Shown here: one piece after another, positions 20,660 to 55,809 of the stretch
Position numbering within the stretch: the stretch's first letter is position 1
Layout: the number at the start of each line of letters is the position of its first letter
DNA from: Octopus vulgaris
Lineage: Eukaryota
Length of the DNA: 64,000 bases
NCBI GenBank assembly: GCA_951406725.2
Contig: OX597828.1
Span: forward strand, 2,790,001-2,854,000
Direction of reading: 5' to 3'
The notes under the pieces: generated by a model
What the model was told of the DNA's origin: nothing
The model's database searches: none
What the model saw: the letters and a program-made list of their open reading frames with translations, nothing else
Made by a program: the position numbers and the translations under genes

Positions 20660-21240
20660 CAGGAAAAATTTCTGAACAACCTACCTGAAAAAATTGAGAA
20701 AAGCTCTATCATTGAAAAATTAAAGTTCATCCTGCAAAATACTTCTTTAATTTCAATATCTATGGACAAATATCTAGGACTGTGATGGGTATGAAAGTAG
20801 CCCCTACATATGCTAATCTTGTCATAGTATACTTAGAAGTCTAAATATATGAATACATACGATTAAGATTTGGCAGTAATCTCCATAAATACCTATTTGC
20901 CAACTGGAAATGCTATCTGGATGATTATTTTAGTCTGTAGACACAGTGTGGATCAACTCTATGGGTTTAGAATTCTAGTTAATAACAAACCACAGTATTC
21001 AATTCACAGTGGAATATGGTGAAAAGAAAGTAATGTTTTGGGATACTTTAATCATGCAAAGAGATATAAACATTGAACTGACAACTAGTTCAAACCAACA
21101 GACTCAAAACAATGTTTGTTATTTTCTTCTTGCCCTCCAAATAATGTGAAATAAATATACCTTTTAACCTGGTAAGAAGAATTTGCACAATTGTATCCAG
21201 TCCAAAGCTTTCAGAAAAAATACTTGTTTTTTAACAAACA
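20660..21240 (+). pseudogene. Penelope-like element reverse transcriptase remnant
   Basis: Decayed peptides TVMGMKVAPTYANLVIVYLEV, WKCYLDDYF, SIQFTVEY, FKPTDSKQCLLFSSCPP, NIPFNLVRRICTIVS match PLE RT motifs and thumb region. Confidence 0.9.
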
Positions 21241-27115: not shown

Positions 27116-27700
27116 TCTTCATCTTGTAATTCCTGGTTTTCTGATTTTATTGAACAAAAATCTTACTACAATAGGATTTTGTTAGGTCACATATTCAACA
27201 CATCAATGTCCAACTACCTTGTCCATATATATATCAATCAATATATAAGAGTAAGATCCAGGGATCCAAATGTAGGAAATTTGTAAGCTTCAAGCAGTCA
27301 TGGATGGACACATATATATATATATATATACATATAGATGGATGGATGGATGGATGGATGGACGGCTGGAACATGGCCTTAAAGGCTTTTAGTCGAAGAA
27401 ATTGACCCCAGGACTTATTCTTTGTAAGCCTAATACTTATCCTATCACTCTTTTTTGCCAAACTGCTAAGTTACAGGGACGTAAACACACCAGCATCGAT
27501 TGTCAAGTGATAGTGAGGGGACAAACACAGACACAAAGACACACGAACATAAATATATACATATATATGTATAATAATAGAAAAATTATACAAATATGTA
27601 TAATTAGATTAAAAGTTGAGTAGAGCACTGGCCTGGTTTAGGCTGCCTCTCGTCATCCATAGATTTACTTCAGGAATTTCATAGTGGCAGTTAGGGTAAC

Positions 27701-28095
27701 ATTATTAATAAAAGTAGAAGATGGATTTCATATCAGACTTTTATTAGGTACAACATATTTTTTGACCTGTCAATCTAGGTTTCTTCAGGTACATCAATAA
27801 AAAAAATCTCACCAGAGATTTTTTATGTCAGCTGGCTTGTCCATCAAATTCGAGAATGAATAAAACCAAAGAAAATTATTGGAACACAAAAAATTCAAAT
27901 ATGAATGTGGAAGGTATACATTCCAGTTTAGACATAATCAGCTTTTGCTGTTATAACTGGTTAGAGAAACAAAAAAAGAAAGTAGTGAGATTTTTTTATC
28001 AATGTACCTGAAAAGATCCAGAACGAGGGGTCGAAACATATGTTGTACCTAGTAAAAGTCGAATACGAAATCCATTTCCTACTTTTATTAATAAT
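27701..28095. mobile_element. PLE-type fold-back cassette with divergent hammerhead motifs
   Basis: ~110-bp inverted arms 27701-27812 / 27985-28095, each containing gtac-CTGAa(g/a)A-stem II-(g/a)AAA-(c/a)atatg-tt-gtac. Confidence 0.75.
28004..28048 (+). ncRNA. Minimal type-I hammerhead ribozyme, one core mutation (CUGAAAA)
   Basis: Stem I gtac/gtac, stem II gatcc/gggtc, GAAA, palindromic catatg stem-loop III, GUU site. Confidence 0.6.
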
Positions 28096-28275
28096 ATGTA
28101 TATATATATAATAATATAATATATATAATAATATGTATATATATATAAAACAGGCTCTTTCAGAAGCCCGAGGCTATAGTAGATGACACTTGCCCAAAGT
28201 GTCACAGAGTAAGACTGAACCTAGAACCATATGGTTGGGAAGCAAGCTTCTTACCACACAGCTATCATCATCATT

Positions 28276-28309
<34 letters not shown>

Positions 28310-29289
28310 TATATATATTTATTCATGTATATAAGTTGATTTCTTTTGGTTTATAATTCTTTCTTGTTCTTATACTAGTATTAGCGAACGTTGTAATGCC
28401 TTTGAGCACAGGTCTGATCAGTCAGAGCTGGCCTAAGGCTGAAAATTCAACTGCAAAACCACACTGGCTTTAGTAAGTGCTGTATTCATTATCCTGCGGT
28501 TGTTTAGTATTTTAACCTTGCAGTTGTTGTTGGTTAATAATTTTGTTTAAAAAGTTTCTTTATATTTTTATTTTCTCTCTTTAATAATGTTTATTTTTTT
28601 CGTTTTTGCTTCTGTCCATGTTTTATTATTACATTTCATTTTTTTACAATTTTATTTCATTTATCTTAGCATCAAATTCGTACTGAAATAACTTGTTCCA
28701 AATACAAACCATATTTTCCCTACTTATTATGTGCAAATGAGTGGACACACATGTGTATGTAAGTGAGTGTGTTTCTATACAAACTAGATTCTTAATTTCC
28801 TGATTTCCCATTATTTTTGACATAATAGCAATAGTACAATGACTAGCTTATTTTCATTTTCAACTTGCCTTTCGTCGGCTGTTTTTACTCTTTCATAAAT
28901 GAGCATAATTGTACATTATAACTGCTTAACTTCTAGTTTTATTTCATTAATAACAGAATATGACAATAGAAAATAATAGTTTTTTTTTTTTGCCAGACAT
29001 CATAGGAAAGTGTTGATGGTTATCATCATCACAAGACTTTTTAATCTATTGATTTTGGACTCAATCTATTTGATTTTGATTCGTAAAAAGTCAACTCTAA
29101 GCGTGAGTTGCCATTGTGTGGTTTCTAAAATCACATCTAGTTAAGGGGTTAACTTTGCCATTAATTTCAGGGACTGTTAGGCTCACCCCTAACCTCATCC
29201 CATAACAAGAGGGTTTCAACAGGTTTGGACAATTCAACCTCAACTCTATGAAACTATTATTCCTATCAAATATTTATTGTGAAATTGTA

Positions 29290-29593
29290 GTTGTGGCCTA
29301 TGCTGGTGACATGTGAAAGGCACTTGTGCCAGTGATACACTGGGGACAACTGTGCCAGTGACACGTAAAAGGCAACCATACCAGTGACATGTAAAACACA
29401 CCTTAGCTGGTGATGCATAAAAGACACCCAGTACACTCTGTGGAGTGGTTGGCATTAAGAAGGGTATCCAGCCACAGAAATCAGGCCTCAACACACTGAA
29501 ACCCAGTGTAGCTCTTCAGCTTCCCAACCCCACTCAAACCATCTTACCCATGTTAGCATTGAAAATGGATTCTAAATGATGATGATGATGATG
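29290..29593 (+). mobile_element. SINE-like family C
   Basis: Several (g)tgcc/tggtgacacgtaaaa subunits, ggttggcattaagaagggtatccagcc, (TGA)n tail. Confidence 0.8.
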
Positions 29594-29974
29594 TTCACTA
29601 GTTAAATGGTTAATGGTGGATCCACTTTTGATAAGTGAGAGCAACCCTGGTCAAAATCTTGTCCATACCCATAGGTTGAGTACAATATTGACTTTGGTAA
29701 AAAAACAATGGTATTGACCCTTGAGCCCTACATAACCACTGCAGGACATCACTTGTATATGTATCATTGCAAGTCGTCTTTGTGCCAAGTTCATACTGGC
29801 AAGTTTTTAAGCCAAAATATTTGTGCAAGCATCTTGAAAGCTTGCAAACTTCTGTTTAACTTTTGTTGTTGCTGTTGTTGTTATTGTAATCGCTGTCTTG
29901 TGTGTCAGAAACAATTATGAGGGTAAAGGAAATTGCTGAAAAGTTATTGGAGTTAAGAATTACAGACCTATTCT

Positions 29975-30506
29975 TTTATCTTTTACTAGTTTCAGTTATT
30001 AGATAGCAGCCATGCTGGAGCTCTGCTTTGAAGAATTTTTAGTGGAATGAATTAAGCCCAGTACTTGGAGTTTATTTTCATTTCATTTTTATTAAGCCTG
30101 GTAATTATTCCATCGGTCTCTTTTGCCAAACCACTTAGTTACACAAAGATACACACACATAGACTTACAGAAAGAGAAAGAGAGAGAGAGAGACAATGAT
30201 GTAGATAACCGGATGAAACTCCTTGGGTTTGATATACAGAATATATATACATGTATACATTTATGTATATATTCTGTATATCAAACCCAAGGAGTTTCAT
30301 CTGGTTATTTGCATCACTGTCTCCATATCTGCTCACTTTGATTCCTCTTACAACCACTCTTTACCTCACTGACTTTGTCCTCGATATAGATTTCAGAGTG
30401 TAAGTTCAAAGCTTTTGAGTGTTACTAAGTGTTTTCTATATAGAGATTCTCTCAGTCTCATCTGTTAATTATGTGTGTGTGTATACACACACACACATAT
30501 ATATAT

Positions 30507-30555
<49 letters not shown>

Positions 30556-30690
30556 AACGGACAGACAGATAGATAAGATGGGTTTCTTTTAGTTGTCATC
30601 TATCAAATCCTCTCACAAGGCTTTGGTCAGCCTGAGGCTATTGTAGAATACAAGGTACCATAGGATTGAAGTCAAGACTGTTTGCGAATT
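29975..30690 (-). mobile_element. SINE family A split by insertions including the 30190-30323 palindrome
   Basis: Tail at 29975-30140 and head at 30575-30690, same orientation. Confidence 0.65.
30190..30323. repeat. Palindrome with 58-bp arms around a TA-rich spacer
   Basis: 30190-30247 is the reverse complement of 30266-30323 with 4 transition mismatches. Confidence 0.9.
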
Positions 30691-30698
30691 GCTTTTTG

Positions 30699-30750
<52 letters not shown>

Positions 30751-30754
<4 letters not shown>

Positions 30755-30951
30755 TGCAGCATGGAATTTTGTCAGTGAACAGGTCACGGTCTGAAAGCAA
30801 CGAAAATATTTTGCCAAATTTAATTTAAATGTTAAAGTAAATCTAACGGTGTTTGTGTGTTTCTCAAATGGCTTATAAACACCACACTGCAATTGTTTTC
30901 GTTCCAGCACACGATCTCAGATCAGGTCACTTGCTATGCAAGTACATCTCC
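30751..30951. mobile_element. Unclassified ~200-bp element inserted in (TA)n
   Basis: Short inverted ends gagatg...catctc, (TA)n on both flanks, CpG-richer than background. Confidence 0.45.
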
Positions 30952-31223
30952 ATAATATATATATACATATGTGTGTGTGTGTGTATAGATCAATATATAT
31001 ATATATTTTCATACATGTGCATGTGTATTAGTTTAGACACACAAGCGCACACACACGCACGCACAAGCACACACACACATGCATATATTCATATTCCCCT
31101 TGATATTTAGAATTATAGAAATGTTAATCTTTTTAATAGTGACTTTTTATTGTTGTTGAATTTGAGACAACCAGTGAAAGAGACGGCATGAAGAGACTGA
31201 TGATTTTGTGTGTGTGTGTGTTT

Positions 31224-31271
<48 letters not shown>

Positions 31272-32244
31272 GTGTTGGTAAATTTGACTAAAAATGCATT
31301 GTTGAAATGTATCCTGTAGGTAACTAAAGACCCAGCTAAAGAACCTATAATTCCATTATTTGTCCTTTTGTCTAGGCTGGAAATGGTAATTTATCCCTAG
31401 CTTTCATCTAATTTTGTTCCTCTTGGTTAAGTTTATTTAAAATTGTTTGTCAACTGCTGTAATGTCTCAAAGATGTTGTTGTGTAGCGAAGGAAGAGTGA
31501 AATAAACAAGAATATAGGTGGAATATATATGGTCAAGCTGAGAATGTTTGCCCTCACAGACTTAATAATATAGGACTGAAAAGATTAGAGAAAGGTGGGC
31601 TATATATCCATCTCCCACACACACTCTCCTTTATTTCCCAATGTCTCCCCAGCCCCCACCCTACATTTTGTTGTTTTTCTCCAAGACTAAACTGTTTTGC
31701 CAGTCTTTTACTTACTGGAATAGTGATGAGAGAACAGATGTACGAGAATTTACTCTGGTTAGTATTGATGACTGAATTTATTTAGAGTCCTACTTGTTTC
31801 CTTGTGGAAGTCATAATAACATGGAAACATGCCTGTTATTGTCTCCCTTATTTACTGAAAAAAAATGTTAGTCATTGAGTAATATTGTTTTTACTTAACT
31901 GCATGATTATTTGTAGTTAGTATTTTGATGTTCATATATCAAAATATATACATTAAACTCCAATTTGACTATTGTCTTTTATGCAAATGATATTAGTAAT
32001 CTATGTAAAGAATTCTTGTTTTCTGCACCAATCAGTGCTTGAAAAAGGAGCAAAGAAAATTACAATGCAGATCCTTTGTTGGGTAGGAAATATAATTATT
32101 CTGGGATCTTTGAATTGATCTTCGTTGACATAAAACATGAGTAAAACAATACATAATAAACTGCTGTAACAAATGCTTTCCATCAGAAAATACTTTTTAT
32201 GTTTTTAAATCTTAGATGATGGATGATTAATGTGCTTTTTTCCA

Positions 32245-32430
32245 ATACAATGCGGCAAGTTGGCTGAATCGGTAATGAAATGCTTGGCAGCATTTCATCC
32301 GTCTTTACATTCTGAATTCTGAATTCAAATTCTGGAGTCAATAAAATAAGTACCAGATGAGTACTAGGAGTCAATGTAATCAACTTACCTATTTCCCCAA
32401 AATTGCTGGCCTTGTGCCAAAATTTGAAAG
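32245..32430 (+). mobile_element. SINE family B (deleted)
   Basis: gaaatgcttggcagcatttcatccgtctttacattctg...gtcaataaaataagtaccag...aaattgctggccttgtgcc. Confidence 0.75.
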
Positions 32431-33404
32431 TCATACATGTTTTCCAATTCAGTCCCTCATTATTCAGAACTGGAAGTATCTAATATCAGCAATAGTCCTT
32501 GGCTTTCCCTTGCCCAGGTTTATTAATTAATTATTACTTAAAATAGATACATTCACTTGAATTCACGTTACTTTTGATAAATTTTAAAAGATTTTGACAT
32601 TCTTCAGTTGGTTTGCTCAGAATTGTTGTATCCAAGGTATTCTTATTTTAGAAATTACCACAAAAGGACATCACCTTTGACCTCCTGAAAAAGATGCGCT
32701 TCTACATAACATTTCAGACACCTATGTATAAAACTGTAGCCAATAACATAGGGCATACATACATTCACTTTTATATATGATATTTTGCTAAGGCACTGCT
32801 ATTTTCTTGGACCATTCAGACAGTAAAGAATTGGCTTCTGTTTTTGATAAAATAATTTCATATTATGTCCTACATTCATTATAGAATATTTAGTCGGCAT
32901 TAGTCATTTAACAGATAGATTTTTAGTGCTTATTCTTTTATAATAGTGCTCTGTGGTTGGAAAGATAAGAGTTAAATAAACAGTTAAGTAGATAAATGCT
33001 GAGTTATATTGATAATGGATCAATTGATAAATATGCTAGCTAGACTGATAAGCAGAAATCCCAGAGACCAGACAGATAGACATCACAAGTGGTACCATGT
33101 AAACATGTGACAATAGCTGGATGTTTCCTATTATCAATAAGTTCTTCAATCTCCATCAACATCAATAATCAAGGCATCGCAGAATTTTAGATTTTCTATT
33201 AAATCCCTTGTTATACTAAACAATGCAAAACTCTTGGTGATGTCCTTATGTTCTTATCACATGATTCTTGTGAGAATGTGTGTGAGAGAGAGAGAGATCT
33301 ACACACACACACACACACACATGTACATCTACACATATACATGCATACATATAGAAAGATATTCATATATGGATATATGTGCAAATACATCTCTCTCTCT
33401 CTCC

Positions 33405-34480
33405 GTATTTTTTTATCTGTAGCAGTCATTTGACAGCAGCCATGCTGGAGCACCACCTTAAAGGATTTTTTAGTCAAAGAAATTGACCCAGGACGTTTTG
33501 TAAGCCTGGTACTTATTCTATCATTCACATTTGCTGAACTGGTAAGTTGCAGGCGTGTAAACAAACCAACATCGGTTGTCAAGTAATGGTGCAGACACAA
33601 AACACACGCAAACACACACACATATCTTAGCTTAAAAGCTGCACTCCGTGTGGACTTTTATACTGGCTCCTGTGGAGGGCCAAATGAGACTGCGGGCCAA
33701 AACTAACGAGAACAATAATAATAAAGCATTTATTGGTACTCTACCAATATGGTGTTACTTTAAATTCAGTGAAATGAAGAACTTGTAAGTTCACAAATTC
33801 TTGGAGTTCTTTTAAAATTTGAATAAAAGATGTATATATACACACATATATATTGTAGTTTTGTGTCCTGTTTGTCTCCCACCACCACTTGATAACTGGC
33901 GTTGCTGTGTTTACATTCACGTAACTTAGTGGTTCAGTTAAAGAGGCCAATAAAAAAGGTACCAGACACAAAAAAGAAAGAACTGGTGTCGATTTTTTCG
34001 ATTAAAATTCTTCAAGGGTGGCCGCACGCTGATGACTGGAAAAGATAAAAGAACCACTAAGTTTCTTACTAAAACTTAAAGCTAAGGGAAATAACTCTTG
34101 TACTATGGCATTGAAAACTCTGGTGGTCACTTTACCTGCTAGAAATAGCAACTCAAATGCTTTTAAATCAGATCTTAATGCTGGATGTTCAAGTACCAAA
34201 TGAAGGGCAAATTTTCAATCTTGGGATCATCCTGATTCCAAGAAGGTATAATATGTCTATGTAGAGCAAATGTAGACTGAGATACAGGGGTCTCAGATGG
34301 AGAGACAGTTTAGTTATTGTTAATATAGATATACAATGGGCTTCTTTCAGTTTCTGTTTACCAAATCCACTCACAAGGTTTGGTCGGCCTGAGCCTATAG
34401 CGGAAGACACTTGCCCAAGGCACCATGCAGTGGGACTGAACCCAGAACCATGTGGTTGGGAAGTAAGCTTCTTATCACGT
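33405..34480. mobile_element. Cluster of family A pieces (minus tail 33405-33620, plus tail 33845-34050, minus head 34330-34480)
   Basis: Each piece is colinear with family A. Confidence 0.75.
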
Positions 34481-35069
34481 GGACCATCTATGTATCACAC
34501 ATAATGTTTACACACTGACGAAGGCTAGTTATGGCAGTATTTGTTCTGAGATAACATTTCTTATAGATTTGCTGTGTTAAGAATGCAATAATTATCAGAG
34601 AGAGAAACAGACAAACAGACAGATGAAAATTTGTCCCAGTGACAACCAGTGAGGACACTGGATGCCTTTTTGGCCTGTTTGGGCCTGAAAATTAAATGAC
34701 ATGATTGTTGAGTCTTATCATGAAGAGCAAAAATATTCTTAGCTTTGCGTATCGTCATCGTGTGGCAGAATAAAAATAAAAATGGCCAGCGAACAGGTCA
34801 GCCGGAATTTAGGGAGAATTAACGAAATTCTAATAGGTTGTTAGCGATGAGATCATTTAAAACTGTCAGTCCTGAAAACATCTAAGATATTAGGAGCGTA
34901 GTAGAGAGGGAGAAAAAAGAAAAAAGGAGCAAAAATATTCTTAGCTTTGTGTATCGTCATCGTGTTGAAATTTAACATAGGCAAAAAAAAAAAAACAAAA
35001 AAAAAAACCCTAATAATAATTTAACATTACTTGAAAAGGTAGTGGGTAGCGAACTTCTTCACTACTTCA

Positions 35070-35907
35070 GGGAGTGACGACCCTGCTTGACACGAGTTCC
35101 GGGCTCAGCTGGCTCCGGCTGACAGTACCCGGTATGGGCCCCTGTCCAGGGTTATGGAAAGGAGACAACCTTCAATGAAATCCGGAGTGGAGCCCCGAAG
35201 GCGGTCTAGTGTTCGATTCGACACTCTTCCGGCAGCTCCTGCAACCAAGCTGGTGCCAAACGTAATGCACTGCACTCCACTGGACTACATCAGCAAGGTC
35301 GAGAGAGGAAACCTGACGATTGGGCTACCCAGGACTTTCTTATCTATAGCCCAGGCCTGCGCAAAACTGGAGAGGACACTTCAGTGCTGCTGTAAAAAGC
35401 TGCAGAAACAACACGGGAGGTAACAGTTACGAGTGATAAGTCCATTCAGATTGGCGTAAAATATGGACGCTACGGGTTACCTCTGCCGGTGGGAGGGACT
35501 TCCATGTCCTATTGGTTAGCTACTGCCCACCTCAAGCTGGGCAGCCCCCAGTTAATAAGGTGCTGACCCGCCACAAGCCACCTGTTCCATTGGGTGCTTG
35601 GAGCTAAGAGTATGACTCGAAAAGCGGCCTGCAACCTCTGCACCAGGCAAGCAACTAAAAGGAAAGAAAGGAAGAGACATAAACAAGAGACCATGGCACT
35701 ACAACCAGCCAGGAACAGTCTTCGCTGCATTTGCAGTACCTGCTAGAGGGAGTGTTTGTCCAGGATAGGACTACACAGCCACAGCAAGAAATGTAACAGG
35801 AAATAAAATATAACAGCCGGACTAGACCTAGAAAAAAATAAATAAATAAATAAATGCGCAACTCCATTGTCTCCCGAGACAGAAAGGATGCCAATACCAA
35901 TACCAAT
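35070..35907 (+). mobile_element. Internally deleted (bipartite) RTE-clade element: 5'UTR fused to ORF end and 3'UTR
   Basis: GC-rich RTE-like leader (gcagcccccagttaataaggtgctg...ctgcaccaggcaa) joined near 35690 to CICSTC*RECLSRIGLHSHSKKC and 3'UTR ccattgtctcccgagacagaaaggatgccaa with a short (CCAATA)n tail. Confidence 0.7.
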
Positions 35908-36012
35908 CATGAAGAGATCTTCTGTTGTACCATCATATTTCTGTACTTGCTTCATACTTGTATATATGCATGAATAGATGGATGAATGTGTATGTATATA
36001 TATATATGTATA

Positions 36013-36083
<71 letters not shown>

Positions 36084-36140
36084 ATATATATATATAATTT
36101 ACAATTATAATTATGCGTGTGTGTGTAAATATATGTATAT

Positions 36141-36319
36141 AAATAATAACAAAACAAGTTACTGATATTTCAAATGCATATAATACATATATTTCAAGTG
36201 GTTACCCATCAAGTCATGTATTCTCTTCAATTGTTAGAAGGGAAATTTGTGTTATGTAATCATTTGAAAATTACGTAGGATATGCATTCAAAATATCAGT
36301 AATTGGGTTTGTTATTTTT
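36141..36319. mobile_element. Decayed fold-back cassette with divergent hammerhead-like remnants
   Basis: ~64-bp imperfect inverted arms 36141-36205 / 36256-36319 beside (TA)n; minus strand tTGAAGA...GAAA-tatatg-ta. Confidence 0.55.
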
Positions 36320-36588
36320 CAAACATTATGTGTCTTATATTTATAACAATATAGCCTATCCTTATTTGGATAATACAGTTACAATGCAACATGCATTTCA
36401 GAATGAACACTGAGTTCAAAACAACTAGAAAAGTGTACTGCATCAAAGCATACAACTGAATATATGTGTGTGTGCATATGTGCTCGTGTATAATGGGTAA
36501 GAATACAGCAAAAGGCAGACAAATAGTATCCTTTCTGCTAAGCCTTCTATTACTTACTCTATTCACCCCTCTCTGTTTCAAGATGGGG

Positions 36589-36632
<44 letters not shown>

Positions 36633-37339
36633 AATAACTTCACTCATTAAGATTTTGTTTCCTTCTGAAGCAGCAATGAGTGTCCAGCATATAATTTGAA
36701 CTTGTCTTATTCCATATACATTCACTAATGCCAATCTACTCCATATACACATGCACACAATGCACAATGCCTCACTTACTGAGATCCAGACACCAGAAAG
36801 AGCTATGAAGGCTTACTCTTATTCCCTTCTTTCTTGTTTGTGAGATTAAGATATGACCTCTCCACATATTCTTCAACCAATCTATGAGGAACTACTACAA
36901 AGTATTAGTCAGACCATGATCTCTTTTATTTGAGTTATCAGAGCAAACTACTCTCAGCTCTTACTTTCCTGTTTTTCCATAATTTACTTCTCACCTTCCC
37001 AAGTGTTAAACTAATACTCCTGTTTGTTGTTTATACACCTGTCTACGTCTTTTGTTTTTCTGTAAATTTCAACTACATATATATATATATTTGCTCGACT
37101 AAAAGGCAGTGCTCTAGCATGGCCAGTCAAGTGACTGAAACAAATAAAACAGTAAAAGAGTATATATGACTAAGGTTTTAGAACATCTACATTGCTAGAA
37201 GGTAACACATTGCACACAGCTGTCTATATTAATTTTTTATATATATTATATATATTTATATATATGCACAGTGTGTGGCAGCACCAACAGTCGCCAGTCA
37301 AATTTACCACATTTGTATACAAATATATATATATATATA

Positions 37340-37607
37340 TCACGTGATCACGTGACCGACCAGACCATCAGATGTTGCTACACATCGCTGGTCACAATGC
37401 ATTCGCATTGTATTAGCCTTCGAATGACGCCACCCTGCTGGCTAAGCGAGCAGGCCAACAGAAGAAAGAGTGGGAGAAAGAGTACAACAGAGATCACCAC
37501 CCTCTGCCGGAGGCTCGTGGAGCTTTTAGGTGTTTTTGCTGGGAATCGAAACCGCGATCCTACGACCGCGAGTCCGCTGCCCTAACCACTGGGCTATTGG
37601 GCTTCCA
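37340..37607 (-). mobile_element. tRNA-derived SINE family D, young
   Basis: Reverse-complement head ggaagcccaatagcccagtggttagggcagcggactcgcggtcgtaggatcgcggtttcgattccc (A and B boxes); CpGs retained; inserted in (TA)n. Confidence 0.85.
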
Positions 37608-37701
37608 AATATATATATATATGCATGTATGTATGTATATTGTCAGTAGTTCATATATCTGAAAAAGAAGCACTCTGAAGCATTAGGACAATAATGTAAT
37701 T

Positions 37702-37924
37702 TTAGGAAGTTAAAAGTTATGGCTGGTCATAGAGTGACCATTTGACCATTGGTGTTGCACCTTTAAAAGTGATTAGCACTACAAGCGCTACTCATTAGAC
37801 AAAAAAATGGTTGAAGGCACCTTCAGCTATTTTTTTGTCTAATGAGCCGACTGTACTGCTAACCACTTTATAGGTGCAAAACTAATTGTCACTCTATGAC
37901 CAGCCATGACTTTTAACTTCCTAA
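37702..37924. mobile_element. Fold-back cassette with two decayed divergent hammerhead motifs
   Basis: Whole 223 bp is self-complementary (36-bp ends with one mismatch); right arm gt-CTAATGA-gc...gc-AAAA-ctaattg-tc-ac; downstream part matches the HHR copy at 45778-45862. Confidence 0.7.
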
Positions 37925-38277
37925 TAAATGTTTGTGGGTGGTGGTGGGTGAGGACTTCATAAATATGAATAAAATGCGGGAAAATTATTAGGAAAGCAAA
38001 ATCTGGTAGGATTGTAAGGATAAAATTTGAAAATAGTGTAGGGGAAATAACTCTGTTTTGCTATGTCTTTCAGCTGCCTCTATAAAAATCAAGAGAGAGC
38101 GGATGAGATTGTTGTTCAGAGTTCCTTCACTTGAAACTAAGATGTGTAATTTAGGCTTGGCAAAGAGAATGGATAGTAAAAAATTGCGTGATTATTTATG
38201 AAATGTTGTAGGGAAGTGAAAAGACGGTAAAACTAGTTGTAAATTACATTTATATATACAGATTTATATGACTGACT

Positions 38278-38346
38278 TAAACCTTTGGACGTGATACTTC
38301 ACCAAAGCTGCAGACCAAAGACTAACCGATACAAAAGTAGAAGTAC

Positions 38347-38386
<40 letters not shown>

Positions 38387-38449
38387 GTACTTCTACTTTT
38401 GTATTGGTTAGTCTTTGGTCTGCAGCTTTGGTGAAGTATCACGTCCAAA

Positions 38450-38455
<6 letters not shown>
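38278..38455. repeat. Near-perfect palindrome: 70-bp arms around (TA)19
   Basis: 38278-38347 is the reverse complement of 38386-38455 with one mismatch. Confidence 0.95.
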
Positions 38456-38487
<32 letters not shown>

Positions 38488-38574
38488 ATACATATACAAT
38501 ACAAAAGTAAAAGAATATATATATATATACATCTTATCTACTCCATTCCTTAACTCTTGTATATCTATCTATCA

Positions 38575-38605
<31 letters not shown>

Positions 38606-39152
38606 ATATCCTTTTGTCTTTACGACCACTTTGTATACTTTTGTATCTTTTTATCTTTATCTCACTTTATCTTTATTTTTGTTTTTTCATTTTTTACTCT
38701 TTATTTTTTGTACCTTTTACACTTTCCCAATACATTTCTAGAATTTATGACCCTATACCTGACGTTCTTTATATCTTTATATATTTATATTTTTACATCT
38801 TTACTTTTTATTATATTTTATATTTTATTATCCTTATAATTATATTTATATATATATTTTTTTGTGATCCCAACTTCATTAACATTTCCTACCCTTCCCC
38901 TCTTTCCTCCTTTTTCTCTTTCTCTCAACATCCAATTCCTTCCCTTACATGAAAGAATCTACCCAGTATTCATTCAATATTGAGTGAGAAAACGGTATAG
39001 ACGATTTTTTGGGGAGTCTAATGTACGCCTATGAAGATTTACAAACATACTTTCCCAGTGATACTCGGTTTACCTACCATTATAAACAATACCAAATGTT
39101 TTTTCTCAAACCTTTCATAATGTGATACAAGTCTTTGGTGTAGCAATTGCAT

Positions 39153-39245
39153 GCGGCTGAAGAGGGCTTTTGAACTATCTTTTATGTCGATTATGCATTG
39201 ATGTAAGAATAAGTTGTTCTATAAAGCTCGAAACATATGTACCGC
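39153..39245 (+). ncRNA. Minimal type-I hammerhead ribozyme with intact core (PLE-type)
   Basis: Stem I gcgg/ccgc; CTGAAGA; stem II gggcttt/aaagctc with an extended hairpin; GAAA; palindromic catatg; GUA site, predicted cleavage after 39241. Confidence 0.8.
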
Positions 39246-39284
39246 GACATCCTTTGTGTCCTGTTTTTCATTTTATTTCATTTG

Positions 39285-39333
<49 letters not shown>

Positions 39334-39367
39334 ATACAAAAGTAAAAGAATATATATATATATATAA

Positions 39368-39888
39368 TACTCTTTTACTTGTTCAAGTCGTTCGACTACA
39401 ACCATGCTGGAGCACTGTCTTGAAGGGTTTCCGTTGAACAAATTGAGCCTAGTGCTTATTGTATCACTCTCTTTTGCCGAACCGCTAGGTTACAAAGGTT
39501 GTAAACAGACCAACACCAGTTGTCAAGCAGTGTTGGGGGGAGGGGGACAAACACAGACGCACATAGATATCATCATCATCATCATTTAATGTCCACTCTC
39601 CATGGGTGAAACTGTTTGACTTGGAGTTCATGAACCAGAGAGCTACACCAGATTCCAGTCTTATTTGACATGGTTTCTTCACCTGGATGCCTTTCTAATG
39701 CCAACCATATATATATATGTATGTGTGTGTGTGTCTGTGTGCCAACCATATATATGTGTGTGTGTGAGCTTTCACATGCCACCGGCATGGGTGCCATTTA
39801 CATGGCACCATCAGTGACTATAACTATAATTCAATGGTGCCATTTAAAAAGCACCAGCGATGGTCCAACTCTGATTTTCACAGGTGTC

Positions 39889-39940
<52 letters not shown>

Positions 39941-40252
39941 TGATAGAAATGGTAAGACAACAAAAGAATGGAAGAGACCTCGATATTATGTAAATAGAGG
40001 AATTTATCTGTAAATGTAATATGTGACAATTATTATCATGGCTACCAAATAATTGTCACATATTACATTTACAGATATATATATATATATACGACAGGCT
40101 TCTTTCAGTTTCCGTCTACCAAATCCACTCACAAGACTTTGGTCAGTCCAAGGCTATAGTAAAAGATACTCGCCCTAGGTGCTACTCTGTGGGACCAAAC
40201 CTGGAACCATGTGGTTGGGAAGTAAGCTTCTTGCCATACAGCCATACCTGCA
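39368..40252 (-). mobile_element. SINE family A with nested family C (39567-39890) and a fold-back insert (39940-40077)
   Basis: Tail at 39368-39560, head at 40090-40252, intervening elements inside the SINE microsatellite. Confidence 0.75.
40005..40077. repeat. Perfect 30-bp inverted repeat with a 13-nt spacer
   Basis: tatctgtaaatgtaatatgtgacaattatt / aataattgtcacatattacatttacagata. Confidence 0.95.
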
Positions 40253-40779
40253 GCAAATACAATAAATATATATAGGGATAAGTTATCCTGCCAGGTTCTG
40301 TAAGAGATTTCAAGTATGGTTCAGCTTCCAGCTAACTTCATTAAGTAGCAAGAAGCATCAAGGATTGCTTAGGGTGAGCAATCCCACTGTAATTCTTCTG
40401 TGGATAAATCCAGATTTACTTTACTGGATTATGAATGTTTTCAGGAATGTAAATCCAATTATAATGAATACAAAGACTGGTAATTCTTTAAATTTTGCTT
40501 TTAATTTAACAGTTAATTATACAACATAATTTGTTTGTTAAAATGACCAAAACTTGTTTCTGCTGCATGGAGTATGTGCAGTTGCATATGCAATTTCACT
40601 CAAAGTCTTTCCACAAGCATGGGCTGAAGTGATTCATACACACACACAGACACATGTGATGACTGTTAGTAATACCCATCCTGAAAGTTAAGTCTATAAT
40701 AGTTTTCATAACACCATTAAGACTCACCTACAAAGCCAAGTTGTCAAGAAACGAGCGAGCACAAGATCTCCTCCTTCAC

Positions 40780-41400
40780 ATTGAAGCAGATGGCTTCTAC
40801 CATACTGTGGGTTCTTATTTCTTGTGCTTGGGGTTATCCTTCCAATAGATTTCATTATAGAGTGTCTTAGCTTCATCATCTCTCATCAGTAGATAATACC
40901 ATGATGACATTTTTGGACAATTGCTTATGATGTGGGTGATATCTTCAGTGTGAACTGCATCAGTTGTCACATTTTATTGCTTTTCTTGTATCTTTATCCC
41001 TTTTGTGCATCAGGAGCTTGGTTGTTATTCCCTGTTCCTGGATTGCAAATGCATACCCTTCAAATTGGGAGGTAGTAATCCAGCTATTGGTCCATGATAG
41101 ATTGCTTTGATGATCAATGTTACTACCATCTTGGAGCTTTCTACTAACATATCCATGCAAAGTCTTCTGCTCATAAAGGCTCATCTGATGATATGTTGTG
41201 GTAGAATCATGTGACTTCTTTGGGCATGTATTCTAGGTTATCAGACAAGGAGTGTTGCTTTCAAGTCTTATAATGTTATCAGCCTAATGTATGTGAACTT
41301 GATCGAGGGATGCACATCAACACTTGGTGGTTAAAAGATGTTGCCAAAAGAATATGATATGACATTCAAAGGCACTTTGAATCTATGTTAAACTTCTGCT
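40780..41400 (-). pseudogene. R4/Dong non-LTR ORF remnant (pre-CCHC region)
   Basis: KTLHGYVSRK...FEGYAFAIQEQGITTK...; frameshifted EDITHIISNCPKMSSWYYL. Confidence 0.8.
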
Positions 41401-41411
41401 GCCTTGTTTAC

Positions 41412-41414
<3 letters not shown>

Positions 41415-41501
<87 letters not shown>
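41415..41501. repeat. (GT)n microsatellite
   Basis: Direct run. Confidence 0.95.
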
Positions 41502-41503
<2 letters not shown>

Positions 41504-41892
41504 TTACTGAATTTAGTCAGGACCCTCATCCTCTCTCTCCTAACTGGACTACCCCCACCCTTCTCTACTTTTATAATTGTGATTATAATCCTGTCTCCTC
41601 TAAGCTGAGAGGTCTATCACTTTGGCTAGTGTATCCATGGAGATTGAGTCAGTCTCCTTGATTGGGCTTGTTGGGATGAAAATAGGGGAGTGGAAAAATT
41701 GCCATGTTTAATAAAATTAAAATAGTTCCAGTTTTTCTTTTCACTTGTCAAACACCTTTGTGAAGAAAAAGGAATTACGTAGATGCAAACTCTATTTTGT
41801 CATCTAATTATGGAGGAGAGGAGTGCCATAAATTTTATTTACCAATGTGAGGCAAGGCCAGTATTTGTCAAACTGGGAACTACTGTCCTAGG

Positions 41893-42258
41893 TTGTCTGC
41901 CACATGGCCTGGGGTTTTGAATGTCTTGTCAGAAACCAATACTACATAGTTACTGATTAGTCTTATTATTGTATGGGTAAGCTATTCCTGTTTCTTCCTT
42001 CTTATTATCTTGTGGAGTATTTCAACACCTGCCTGGTAATGATACCCAAAATATCAACCATAAACATTGCGTTTTGAAATGTCATGTTTATGGTTGATAT
42101 TTTGGGTATCATTACCAGGCAGGTGTTGAAATACTCCACAAGATAATAAGAAGGAAGAAACAGGAATAGCTTACCCATACAATAATAAGACTAATCAGTA
42201 ACTATGTAGTATTGGTTTCTGACAAGACATTCAAAACCCCAGGCCATGTGGCAGGCAA
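41893..42258. repeat. Long palindrome: 175-bp arms, 16-nt spacer
   Basis: 41897-42067 is the exact reverse complement of 42084-42254 (171 bp, checked block by block). Confidence 0.97.
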
Positions 42259-42960
42259 ATGGAGTACCTGACCAGTGGAATATGTCCTCTCCTCAGAAAG
42301 CTGAAGAATATGTGTTAGCACTCAGGCATTAATATATAACAGAAGTGATGTATGCATTTGCCACCTCTGTCTGACCTTTCAGAGTCAGCATTCTCTTGGC
42401 CCATTTCTAGGTGAGACTCGCCATCCTGCTTGTCACCTAATCCATGTTCTTCTCCATCTGGAGACTCTGAAAAATTTAACTGGTCCGTCCATCCAGCATC
42501 CCATGATGTTATTAAATAGCATGGATCTGCCTCTCCCAGTGCTGAGCTGTAGGCCCACTGACTTTTCTTGTTTAATTTTTGCTCCTGTCATCATCTCATA
42601 TTCTTTTAGAGCTTTTGCTGATCAGGTCTGTGTGCCTGGTGTTTGACACTATGATGCTGACATCATCCACATATGTCAACATAGTTCTCCCACGTTCATG
42701 CAGGATGCCTCTCAATGCCTCCAGTTTCCACAGTGGTACATTTGCAAGAGATGAGAAGGGACTCCTTTTACAGACTGAGTGCATGATGCTGAATGTTTCT
42801 GATGAGTAACCATCCACCCAAACTACCAACGAGATGCTGCTATACATTGCAGCAAACCAGCTGCAGAAAACAGGATCAAAACTGACGGCCAGGTATTGGT
42901 AGTTGATCCTATTATAATAGCAGTAGAATTGATTGAATTTCCACAAGGTTCTGCCATGAC
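42235..42960 (-). pseudogene. Tx1/L1-clade reverse transcriptase remnant
   Basis: FDPVFCSWFAAMYSSISLVVWVDGYSSETFSI..., MLTYVDDVSIIVS (YxDD), TGAKIKQEKSVGLQL, GHIPLVRYSIC. Confidence 0.85.
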
Positions 42961-43198
42961 TGTAAATACTTTGCAAACTGCAATATCTGACTGTTTCCAT
43001 TGTAGAAGTCAGTTGAACATTTAGCCTGCATGAGACCAACTGGTTTCTTAGGGTATTCTTACTTCAAGCTGTCTCTATTAGATAAGTTGAGTATTAGAAG
43101 TAATTAAAAGAGGAACATAAAAGCAAATATGATTGTGATGTGATATATATTTTACATCTTTACACATCTTATAAAAATAGCATAACAAGGTTCACCCT

Positions 43199-43997
43199 AG
43201 TAACAGACTTTCACATCTGGATCCCTTTGTAGCGAATCCTGCATGCATGAAGTGGATTCGATCCACCATAGCCAAATTTGAATTAACACTGCTACAGAAC
43301 TTTTCCCACAATGGAACAATGGTTTTTCTCTGACAAGTAGTTTTTACATTTTCCAGATGCCTTTTAGCTAGGCCGAAACAATGTCTTCACCACTTGACCC
43401 TTTCTAACATCTTCTGCTTCACCAAAAGCTAGAATAGATAACAAGACCACCAACTAAATCTATTGTTCTCAATGATATATCTATCCTTCTGGATCTTTAT
43501 ATAAGCAAGCACACCCCAAGCAAAAATCAGTCAGTAACTTGTCGGCAACTGAACAAGACATTTCGTGACGACTCAATTAGTAAGGAAAGGACTGCTAGAA
43601 TTTAATGGTCAGAGAGAGAAAGAAGAATTCCTACCAGCAACTTCAGATACCGTTCCACACTCTCTCCCTCTCACTAGCTCGAACTCTGTTCTCTTAGAAC
43701 ATCATTCTATCTCTCTCAGCAATTACTACTAACAACAAAGAGAACCCAAACTCAAACATTCTACCGCATCTATCCATCACATGCTTTTGGATTTATCAAC
43801 CTGCCTGTCAAGGCAAGGTATTGTAACATAACGGTAAATAAATATTTCCTTAAAACTTCATGCACTTTGTTCCTCCACATCTTACAGTACTGCAAACATA
43901 AAAATTATTGTCGTCACACCAGCTGACCACGACATATTTTAATATTGTTTACCAACCAATGTCTCCCATTACAACTAAAAAATTCAATACCGTTACA
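43199..43997. mobile_element. Probable solo LTR (~800 bp)
   Basis: Ends (a)gtaac...gttaca (TG..CA with one mutation); flanks ccct/cctt as a possible 4-bp TSD; internal tatataag and aataaa. Confidence 0.5.
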
Positions 43998-44164
43998 CCT
44001 TCAAAAAGAGGCATTAGCAAAGGGTCTTCTATGTTGATGCCATGAAGGATCTTATGTTGTTACTCTACCTGTTTATAACATCAAACTACGACCATTCTTA
44101 AAATAGGGACTTCAAATAAAATGTATATTTTAAGAGAGTTGACTCTTTTCTCTTTCCTGTTTCC

Positions 44165-44372
44165 TTTTTGTCTTGCAATTTACTTGGTGACTCACTGGTG
44201 CTGGTGCCACATAAAAAGCACCTAGTGCACTCTGTAAAGTGGTTGGCATTAGGAAGGGAATTCAGCCATAGAAAATATGCCAAAGCCGACACTAGAGCTT
44301 GACACAGTTGTGCGGATTGCTGAATCCTATCAAACTGTTTCAATCCATGCCAACAGACATTTGATGATGATG
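44165..44372 (+). mobile_element. SINE-like family C
   Basis: gtgctggtgccacataaaaagcacc...ggttggcattaggaaggg...(TGA)n. Confidence 0.8.
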
Positions 44373-45354
44373 CTGAATAGCAAGCCAATACGTAGTGTTT
44401 TAAGAATGGTTTTGCCTTCAAGCATCTCTTAGCCCTTTATGATATGGTAGTGTCCAGTTGTCATGAAAGGTCAGCAGAAATTTGTTAGCAAGGAAAGTTT
44501 TAGTTTCCTCTTTTTCTCTATAAGTTCGTGTTGTGGATAGAGTTTTGGGATATTTATAGTATTTTTCAAATGTAACAAGGTTCTCACTATTTTCCTTTGA
44601 TCATGGAGCTTATACCTGACTAATGGACGAGTAAGGTCGTAAATAAAGAACATTCATGGAAAACTGTTGTTGTTTTTGTTCAGTCCAGGTTGGCTCTAAT
44701 CGAGTAAACTTATCATCAAAACATTCAAACCGTATTTATTCTGTTATTCTGCCTATCTAGTGCTACCTTCTGTCGTAGGTTCTTCCTTTGCAAAGATGGC
44801 AGAGGGTAATTTTAAGGAAATTTTGGTTGCTATTTCTAGCATGCAAAATACCTTGCGTAGAATAACAGTTGACTTAAGTTAGCTCAGAGACGAGCAACGT
44901 AACCTACATCGAATTGTATGTGCCACTCATCATACACTGAAGTGAGTTGCAAAGAATTTATTCGCTCCAGGGGAAGTAACTCTTCCAATCTCGAGGGTCG
45001 TAATCAATTGTAGTAATTAATTACGCTCAGCTCTGCATGCAATACTTCTTATGACAAAAACAGTTGCAAGTTGCAAGAGAAAGCGGGTGCATTGTTATTT
45101 ATTAATTTCTTTTTAAGCCTTCATAATCACTGTTCACTTCCTTTGTATATTCTATGTACCGTTCATGCAGTTTTCGTTAATTATTCTCATCAGTTGTGCA
45201 AATGAGCAATAATTTTGTCAACTGGTTATTATTTTAGATGTTCAATTTGTATTTCACTGATATTGGATAGCCATGATAACGCTGTGTTAACGTATAATTT
45301 CCAGGATAATGATGTTAATTTCAATAACATTATGTGTGTCTGTGTGTATACAAA

Positions 45355-45610
45355 CACGTAGGAGTGGCTGTGTGGTAAGTGTCTTCTACTATAGCTTTGG
45401 GCCGTCCATAGCCTTGTGAGTAGACGGAAACTGAAAGAAGCCCGTCTTATATATGTATATATATATATATGCATGTGCGTGTTTGTGTGTCTGTGTTTGT
45501 CCCCCCCAACATCGATTTACAACCGATACTGGTGTGTTTACGTCCCCGTAACTTAGCAGTTCGGCAAAAGACACCGATAGAATAAGTACTAGGCTTACAA
45601 AGAATAAGTA
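45355..45610 (+). mobile_element. SINE family A (deleted)
   Basis: Colinear with family A. Confidence 0.85.
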
Positions 45611-45674
45611 TATATTAGTGCAATAGAATATATAATAAATAGAATAAATATATAATTTTTTCAATACGTATTTT

Positions 45675-45758
<84 letters not shown>

Positions 45759-45777
45759 TATGTGCCTCTGGCCAACA

Positions 45778-45835
45778 AGTCTGACGAGTTGCCTATACCA
45801 CTAAGATATTTATAGTTGCGAAATCATCGGTCACT
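45778..45835 (+). ncRNA. Minimal type-I hammerhead ribozyme, core intact with weak stems
   Basis: agt-CTGACGA-g..ctata/tatag..c-GAAA-tcatcgg-TC-act (GUC site); adjoins (TA)n(GA)n. Confidence 0.6.
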
Positions 45836-46014
45836 CTCTGACTAGCCATAACAACCTTCTAAGTATGTGTGTATATATCATTATCATCATCATTTCAACA
45901 TTTATTTTTTCCATGTTTGCATGGGTTGGACAAAATTGAATTACTTTATTGTGACAGTGTCTATATTCAGATGCCCTTCCTGTCCCCAGTTCTCACCTAT
46001 TTCCAAGCAAGGTA

Positions 46015-54063: not shown

Positions 54064-55809
54064 TATATGCGTGTGTAAGCGCGTGCGTGTATTTTCTGCG
54101 TTGTGGAACTAACCTTCTTGGATACTTATACCGGTCATTCTCCCTTACTGGATTTTCCGTTATTCCTCAGGTAAATATCGATATATATCTATCTATAATA
54201 AGAGAGTATTCCCCTCCACCCACCAGCTTTCGTCATAGATGTATTTGTCAATCTATTTATTTACCTCGAAAGCTAGTGTTAGGGATCGTTTCTATGGCCA
54301 GTACAGCCATCTCCTGCCATGAAATATCTTTGGGATTATTTTCAAGCTTGACCGAAAACTATATTAGATCATATTTTCGATCAAATCTGATTATTCATTT
54401 TATTAAATCTATTTATTTTGATATTTCGATTTAATTACTCTTTCTTTTCGTAGCTTTCCATTCTAGTTCGATTAGAAAAACAATGTGCGCGTCAGTTGAA
54501 ACCCTTCTAATGTATGTCTATCTTAAACCTGACATGTTCTTGCTATCGTTCTAATTTGCCTGAATATCATAATGTCTGATTAACTATTTTCTACCTCTTA
54601 GTCTATTTCTTTCCCCTCTTTCTTTTTACACACACACACGTATATACACATACCCACACGCATTCAGTTGTATTTCTTTTGTTACGCATTGTACTTTACC
54701 TAGTATTTATATCTAGGCTTTACCTTGTCTGTGTTTTTATTTACTGTTATGGTTAGCTAATACATACCGATTAATACACTCACACTGTGCTCACTATGAT
54801 AAATATATACTGCTGTTTAACTGATTTCTCACATAGCAATGAAGCCTGGGGTCGTTTTCTGCACACACACACACACACACACAAACGGTTTGTCATTTGC
54901 TAGTAAAGTGATTTATTCGGACATTATGCACTATTATAGACCTACCCTGGGCGGTCGTCGTTCGACTTAATAAAAAAATAGTAATTATAACCAGATTCCT
55001 TCGTACGTCCTTTCTTAGGGCTTTACAAGAAAAGTCGAGATCATCATCACGACTGAAATGCCTTTCAATACAGGTCTGCTCGATCAGATCAGATCAGAAC
55101 TGAAGCTAAATAATGACAATCAACAGACATGAAAACATTACAAACACACCATATCAATTAGGTTCCGTTCCTTGTTCGTTTAACCTACAAAACAAGTTGT
55201 TTGGTGAATGACGTTCAGAGCGACACACTACAACACAACCCCCACTCATCGCTACCAGCATCAACAGCACCATCACCAACCTTTTTTAAACCATGCCTAT
55301 GTTCGTCTGGCCTCTTCAAACGATTGACCGGTTCGGACATATAGGACAGTCCATTGCCATCAGAGGTGGATATGTCAACGATGTTTAGACTCCGCCTCTC
55401 TCTCTCCCCCTCTCCCCCCTTGTAGGACGGGCACCGTTTCAGAAGTTTAACTACATAGACTCATTCATACATATACACTGCACCATTATTGATTTCTTGC
55501 GTAGGCATTATTGATTTGTTACGTATGGGTAGGTGAAAATGAGATTATGGGACTTTCATGCCTTTCTCAAGAGCTCTAGTGACATAAAGGAATGCTGATA
55601 CGTCTCGTCTGGAGATTGATCGATTATACCTTTTATTCTTCGGAGCTATTTACACACTGCGCCAAGATTAATGACATTCTAGCAGACACCGACCATAATT
55701 CTAACCCCACCTCCATCCATTCACCTATTATTTCACACCTACGTGGACTTTACACCGTCTTCATTACCCGTTTACTCCTACATATTCTCTCTCCATCCTT
55801 TCCACTCAC

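Follow-up and report, generated by a model that had tools for sequence, protein, structure and literature searches.

The fold-back cassettes in a 64,000-nt stretch of the Octopus vulgaris genome (contig OX597828.1; here referred to as the window) very probably go back to protein-coding Penelope-like elements (PLEs) that inserted in heavily 5'-truncated form and are now dead. In each of them two ribozyme-bearing 3' ends lie head to head, likely as a result of priming from both strands of the target. This reading is built on the family identity of each cassette, on coding parents in three families, on junctions that vary from locus to locus, on a tail carried by one arm and on variants shared by the arms of a locus. 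The cassettes do not multiply as units. A sequence-only reading had described them as three inverted repeats with outward-pointing hammerheads and had proposed a non-autonomous, retrozyme-like family. Its fold-backs, their orientation, the genome-wide families and the PLE and hammerhead identity were confirmed; an intact core was found in none of the six arms, and the non-autonomous family was not upheld.

Cassette 1 is an inverted repeat (27701-27805/27991-28095, 83% identical) of asymmetric build. Its long arm of 285 nt (27701-27985, minus strand) represents the pLTR with which a Hydra-type PLE ends on its 3' side and contains a hammerhead at 27748-27792 with a G12A change. A tail (27618-27700, minus strand), common to other copies past the repeat end, adjoins this arm and is missing from the right one. 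The short inverted arm of 113 nt (27983-28095, plus strand) is untailed, overlaps the long arm by 3 nt (27983-27985) and carries a hammerhead at 28004-28048 with a G8A change. In cassette 2 (36142-36205/36256-36319, 80% identical) the left arm (36141-36230, minus strand) is untailed and its ribozyme is cut by the fold point within the CUGA core, with loss of the 5' strand of stem I. The right arm (36235-36319, plus strand) has a degenerate core and continues into a tail (36320-36390). Cassette 3 (37702-37924) matched its own reverse complement at 79%. Here the tail (37635-37701) belongs to the left arm (37635-37820, minus strand), which has a G5A change and a damaged GAAA, and the untailed right arm (37816-37928, plus strand) carries G5A and G12A. 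Outward-pointing hammerhead-shaped motifs and a one-sided tail were present in all three cassettes.

Intact cores were found in the window only in the two single copies of the earlier description. One is a single-armed, untailed copy of a young family, here named family 4 (38592-39294, plus strand). It comes from the 3' end of a Hydra-type PLE, and its type-I hammerhead (39153-39245) is intact. The other (45751-45863, plus strand; hammerhead 45777-45836) is intact in its core only, with weakened stems, and belongs to the family of cassette 3. A possible further cassette at 54218-54277 had no family, since its only candidate (1/1) was the match to itself. A broken reverse transcriptase (RT) remnant, earlier placed at 20660-21240, spans 20716-21230 on the plus strand. 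Its motifs are of Neptune/Poseidon type as judged by eye, and no Pfam, homolog or Atlas match and no match to Hydra proteins was obtained; it is therefore not the parent of the cassettes. Two further near-perfect palindromes are present in the window and may be artefacts.

Each cassette is a member of a genome-wide repeat family. A first look gave at least 692, 23 and 510 candidates for cassettes 1, 2 and 3 (families 1 to 3), respectively, all of these counts being lower bounds. In three of the four families (1, 3 and 4), RT/GIY-YIG coding sequence of a Hydra-type PLE was located upstream in longer copies. In family 3, RT and endonuclease were collinear with the pLTR in copies L122 and L116, and the family is close to Hydra-1_Obim, its loop III being identical. 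Family 1 carried the endonuclease part upstream of the pLTR in copies L019 and L021. A first impression of family 4 as non-coding was overturned by an ORF in longer flanks. The whole element of this family, L272, consists of a pLTR piece, tail, ORF, long 3' UTR and pLTR. For family 2 the alignment covered the end, the ribozyme and the tail.

Among the protein marks of the Hydra clade are a CxCX5C linker and, around the conserved E and N, CxxC and CxH. The linker and CxH were present in families 4 and 1, and CxxC and CxH in the endonuclease of family 3. Where the clade has DKT in place of DKG, a family 4 copy has DKI; this site was not recovered in families 1 and 3. The GIY-YIG domain (PF01541) scored above the cut-off in one of 11 scanned relatives of the family 3 endonuclease. 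The endonuclease piece itself had no Pfam match, and its homolog and Atlas searches were empty, unlike the HMMER representative search. The putative assignment of families 1, 3 and 4 to the Hydra clade is based on motifs and on a comparison with Hydra-1_Obim by eye. Pieces of families 3 and 4 were also found at 90-99% likeness in contigs of three presumed-RNA runs, where ends, strand and locus are unreadable, so that these matches have no bearing on expression.

Within the window the hammerhead motifs are inconspicuous. An Rfam scan returned 137 matches at E ≤ 5, none of them a hammerhead, and a strict structure scan found one zero-mismatch motif, at 39157. Bare short-core motifs, whose density the sequence-only reading had proposed to compare with shuffled sequence, occurred four times compared with 1.59 ± 1.33 in shuffles, 8 of 100 shuffles reaching four; the density did not differ, and none of the four lay inside a cassette. 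Single-strand folding showed five of six motifs to be no stabler than shuffles. What makes the motifs credible is the alignment of the families, which the window by itself could not replace. In aligned copies of each cassette family the core reads CTGA(A/T)GA...GAAA and loop III is palindrome-like, both as anticipated in the sequence-only reading. In families 1, 3 and 4 the CUGANGA/GAAA core is conserved between differing paired stems; stem I of family 2 is weak in the alignment. Judged by family, the cassette arms are type-I hammerheads with decayed or truncated cores.

The arrangement of the arms was examined in 83 loci of family 4 (L108 and L110 were left out as duplicates of L107 and L140; the segmental duplicates L151 and L152 were both counted) and in a motif-picked set of 39 of 40 loci of family 3 (without L214). 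Two arms were found in 42 of the 83 loci; in the other 41 a second 3' end was not visible in flanks of up to 3.5 kb. Among 87 exact motif matches of family 4 there were nine divergent pairs and no convergent pair, with gaps of 21-1294 nt. The tail was restricted to a single arm in 39 of the 42 two-armed loci (binomial p = 3e-9), the exceptions being two tailless loci and one with tail sequence on both arms. In locus L097, which was scored as single, a short inverted tail end adjoins a partly tailed arm. Family 3, read by eye, gave a similar result (22/39 two-armed, 21/22 one-tailed). Two whole ribozymes were spanned in 14 of the 42 two-armed loci of family 4 and fewer in 28.

No junction was repeated among these 42 loci, and none recurred in the motif-picked set of family 3. 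Arms overlapped at the junction in 12 of 38 cases, by a mean of 2.1 nt compared with 0.73 nt expected for blunt joins, and 26 of 38 contained unaligned bases. Some junctions were near-symmetric (L105, L154, L180 and cassette 3). The arms are frequently not nested: the untailed arm extended further in the 5' direction in 24 of 39 loci, and in seven loci the inverted arm consisted of tail only. The inverted arm ended at the cleavage site in one of 42 loci, read through it in 30 and stopped short in 11, so there was no enrichment. Minority variants were shared within a locus at 11.1 per kb versus 1.8 per kb (28 loci; 0 of 5000 permutations). Gene conversion between arms could also yield such sharing. 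The flanks consist of (TA)n, which masks any target-site duplication.

A non-autonomous family that is expressed and moves as a unit of two ribozymes, as first suggested, is very improbable on these data. One observation in its favour comes from 12 loci of family 3 with fold points a few bases from that of cassette 3, but these had been chosen by a fold-back query and their junction sequences differ; the motif-picked set revealed this query bias, and a fixed fold point was rejected. The junction of cassette 1 is also that of a cluster on C5, with the two arms of each place bearing their own subfamily marks. We read this as a hot spot, and it is the sole fact fitting a reused fold-back. On the other side, recurring junctions are missing from the motif-picked sets, 28 of 42 two-armed loci have fewer than two whole ribozymes, and a comparison of arms with and without the tail gave no distinguishing column among 253 (smallest p = 0.23). 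Outward-pointing ribozymes leave one sense ribozyme per transcript, and therefore no unit-length monomer can be excised. Moreover, three of the four families have coding parents. Animal non-LTR retrozymes (PMC7229834; bioRxiv 10.64898/2026.07.22.740005) share the type-I hammerhead and PLE ancestry, but they are non-coding direct tandem repeats, whereas the octopus cassettes are inverted ends of coding elements: ORFs lie upstream in families 1, 3 and 4, and tandem units were found in none of the 83 loci, without any locus holding two whole direct units. Only partial direct pieces were seen in family 3. Even less probable is an origin as MITE-like DNA transposons bounded by long terminal inverted repeats, or as fold-back artefacts of the assembly. 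Short non-coding palindromes within TA tracts would suit both, and the two other palindromes of the window might be such artefacts. However, the cassette arms are only 79-83% alike and hence old rather than chimeric reads, the ends are asymmetric with a tail, and the arms run into PLE ORFs, these ends being preceded by RT and endonuclease in collinear order.

How the inverted arm arises in a PLE is the closer question. It could be formed by self-priming, in which cDNA or antisense RNA would fold onto itself and serve as template, the endonuclease then trimming the tail at one end; self-priming was proposed in PMC3846280 and endonuclease resolution in PMC8557442. This would account for the head-to-head geometry, the short microhomology, the within-locus variant sharing and the near-symmetric junctions. 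A simple fold-back, however, predicts that one arm is a subset of its partner, whereas each arm had private sequence in 24 of 39 loci, and the seven tail-only arms do not fit either. Self-priming survives only with a long-range fold-back and later trimming of the template arm, and we consider it unlikely. Two start sites, with each strand of the target acting as primer, seem preferable, because arms of the same locus share variants yet are often not nested. In such a process both strands would be cut by the PLE protein within a (TA)n tract. From one of the DNA ends cDNA synthesis would begin at the tail's far end, and from its partner at the end of the pLTR; each cDNA would terminate early, and their 3' ends would be joined by 1-4 nt of microhomology or short filler. 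Paired outward hammerheads would then be a by-product, present only where both cDNAs had passed the motif, and would decay afterwards.

The layout itself is known. Two-armed insertions have been described for EN+ PLEs (PMC8557442 Fig. 2; Pen2a_Av, PMC3846280), which likewise show an inverted 5'-truncated copy head to head, a pLTR hammerhead, a tail at one end and microsatellite targets. The octopus families share with them the upstream ORF of RT and C-terminal GIY-YIG (both parts in families 3 and 4, the endonuclease part in family 1), the inverted truncated copy (42/83 and 22/39) and the single tail (39/42, 21/22 and 3/3 in families 4 and 3 and the window, respectively). They differ in that octopus arms are usually shorter than 300 nt, so only a hairpin remains, and in the tail length (about 60-90 nt versus 30-40 nt). 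A hammerhead-bearing octopus PLE, Hydra-1_Obim of Octopus bimaculoides, is also in print (PMC8557442 section 11 and supplement), and the shared features are RT motifs, the CxCX5C linker, the CxxC/CxH endonuclease and (TA)n targets. It has its loop III in common with family 3, and the two are closely similar over a stretch of RT; stems I and II are different. Unlike in Hydra-1_Obim, Asn/Ser-rich inserts are present in the ORFs of families 3 and 4, and the 3' UTR of family 4 exceeds 2 kb with microsatellite-like blocks, whereas Hydra-clade elements are 'generally <3 kb'.

As objects the cassettes are therefore ordinary, with a known insertion layout, a known clade and a published octopus relative. 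Their value lies in data on the formation of inverted PLE ends, for which self-priming has been proposed (PMC3846280) and two start sites have been demonstrated in vitro (PMC11167929). Young and abundant families give countable rules: a single tail, non-nested arms, one source per locus and read-through of the cleavage site. Poseidon of the green anole, a PLE of a different clade, is alike in cutting and extending both strands in vitro, in RT starts at two sites bounding the tail and in insertion without ribozyme cleavage (PMC11167929); the available part of that paper does not treat the pairing of both start sites in one insertion. We lean slightly towards a general reading in which PLE integration is paired: one protein-RNA complex would start a cDNA on each strand of the target, each at its own tail-bounding start site, with a single RNA, uncleaved or re-closed into a circle, as the shared template. 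Thousands of loci with octopus-type Hydra stubs would then be a record of such events and would settle twin priming versus self-priming.

A read-through transcript of a cassette is predicted from its sequence to fold into a dsRNA hairpin. The many old hairpins of this kind, if read through in host introns, would be dsRNA and a possible ADAR substrate in cephalopods.

All three inverted repeats reported by the sequence-only reading were present in the window, namely cassettes 1 (27701-28095), 2 (36141-36319) and 3 (37702-37924), each with inverted arms and outward hammerhead-like motifs. The window is part of contig C15 of a genome of 2.8 Gb. No hammerhead was among the matches of an Rfam search of the window and a strict structure scan found one perfect motif, at 39157. 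Bare core motifs in the window were not above shuffled sequence. A genome search revealed each cassette as a member of a repeat family (families 1 to 3), and both core strands, CTGA(A/T)GA and GAAA, were present in the aligned family copies together with a paired stem II, a loop III resembling a palindrome and a stem I that closes the motif; the stem sequences differed from family to family. Since the cassettes are repeat families and the aligned copies keep the core between different stems, the motifs are real and their identification as hammerheads is upheld. Minimal hammerheads of Penelope-like elements (PLEs) can cleave as dimers. In the window, all six cassette arms carried a damaged ribozyme motif. 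The hammerhead copy at 45778 belongs to the cassette 3 family, and 54218, suggested as a possible further cassette, had no detectable relatives.

The arms of cassette 3 (37792-37798 and 37839-37845) shared the core change G5A and a T-run absent from the family majority; this may reflect a ribozyme already inactive in the source RNA, or conversion of the arms. Furthermore, a piece of a fifth PLE end was located at 36995-37090. A related piece in the fetched locus L134 (1255-2470) is hammerhead-bearing and lies downstream of a canonical-type RT/GIY-YIG remnant.

The RT remnant at 20716-21230 belongs to a different type with no link to the cassettes, and drops out as their parent. Longer copies of family 3 carried an endonuclease upstream, which had 2198 relatives at E<=0.001. 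One of these, P0017 (723 aa), aligned from RT through endonuclease along the loci L122 and L116 and was collinear there with the ribozyme-bearing end (pLTR). Compared by eye with Hydra-1_Obim, a Hydra-clade PLE of Octopus bimaculoides, in the PMC8557442 supplement, the RT stretch of family 3 was closely similar and loop III of the published ribozyme was the same. The same kind of endonuclease was found upstream in family 1 (L019 and L021). Family 4, represented in the window by the single copy at 39153, had copies 96-99% identical to one another. It seemed to be non-coding at first, which was ruled out by the whole element L272, which runs from a pLTR piece through a tail and an ORF carrying Hydra motifs to a 3' UTR of over 2 kb and a 3' pLTR. 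According to this layout the tail, the stretch beyond the repeat end, is therefore the leader that separates the ORF from the 5' pLTR.

Asn/Ser-rich inserts, resembling the N-rich inserts of Adineta Penelopes, occurred in the Hydra-type ORFs of both family 3 and family 4 (loci L272 311-7892; L261 3211-5146; L112-L128). The long 3' UTR of family 4 was microsatellite-like; that of family 1 measured about 0.5 kb. In DNA run X15 the summed contig depth at 39108-39281 was about 70,000-100,000 versus 23 in unique flank, which is no copy number and gives a rough hint that family-4 ends number thousands. PMC13282606 reports that PLEs have expanded in Octopus vulgaris.

Among 87 exact matches to one family-4 motif, nine divergent and no convergent pairs were found, with gaps of 21-1294 nt. 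The family-4 set comprised 83 loci, 23 obtained via DNA search and 60 of the remaining pattern matches, and in 42 of them an inverted 3' end adjoined the main arm. Each of these 42 two-armed loci had its own combination of arm starts. Two whole ribozymes were spanned by 14 of them (one of these having its motif deleted), one by 18 and none by 10. In family 3, 22 of 39 motif-picked loci were two-armed, again with different junctions. None of 253 alignment columns separated tailed from untailed arms. A fixed fold point in family 3 was rejected, the 12 copies folding near that of cassette 3 being picks of a fold-back query with differing junctions. The 3-nt junction of cassette 1 also occurred in a duplicated cluster on contig C5, with both arms of the own subfamily at each place; here we infer a hot spot adjoining a small internal hairpin. 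Given that junctions were not repeated and differed from locus to locus, and that no column separated the arms, the fold-backs are not the mobile units they had been suggested to be. The cassettes are independent insertion products.

The tail was present on exactly one arm in 39 of the 42 family-4 loci (two had none, one had both), in 21 of 22 family-3 loci and in 3/3 window cassettes, with L097 of family 4 as a further likely exception. In the 39 family-4 loci the untailed arm reached further 5' in 24 and the tailed arm in 13, with two ties, and seven inverted arms of this family were tail-only; one arm is therefore often no copy of the other. Minority variants were common to both arms of one locus six times more often than to arms of different loci. 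Of 38 junctions, 12 overlapped by 1-4 nt, above the level of blunt joining, and 26 had filler or unaligned bases. The cleavage site was read through in 30 of 42 inverted arms. For the anole Poseidon, PMC11167929 describes cutting and extension of both strands and two start sites bounding the tail, ribozyme cleavage not being needed. Given PLE identity, the simplest model, which we consider fairly probable, is that both target ends would prime, one at each start site, cDNA synthesis from both would stop early and the products would be united by end joining. Self-priming followed by later trimming (PMC3846280) remains the rival to such paired priming. In a literature search of journals outside subscription, judged by title and abstract start, no study was found that treats paired priming by PLEs.

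An inverted 5'-truncated copy with a tail at one end, as in the window cassettes, is described as a common layout of PLE insertions (PMC8557442; PMC3846280). In contrast, retrozymes are described as non-coding direct tandem repeats (PMC7229834; bioRxiv 10.64898/2026.07.22.740005), and the cassettes are not of that kind. They are real sequence of a known kind, of low interest as an object and of moderate interest as a data set on PLE integration.

Other palindromes were found nearby. At 41893-42258, arms of 182 nt (98% complementary, 2-nt spacer) showed no hammerhead and had one weak match elsewhere; this is either a palindrome of recent origin, unique to this site, or a fold-back created in the assembly. 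Arms of 89 nt (99% complementary) with (TA)n at the centre lie at 38278-38455, just upstream of the family-4 copy, where a DNA-run contig spans the left arm only. A further inverted repeat (65 nt, 89%) with a TA-rich centre is located at 30183-30330. In the flanks of the fetched loci L002-L030, long unrelated palindromes (100-880 nt) occurred within 1.5 kb of many loci, and fold-backs are therefore very common in the Octopus vulgaris genome.
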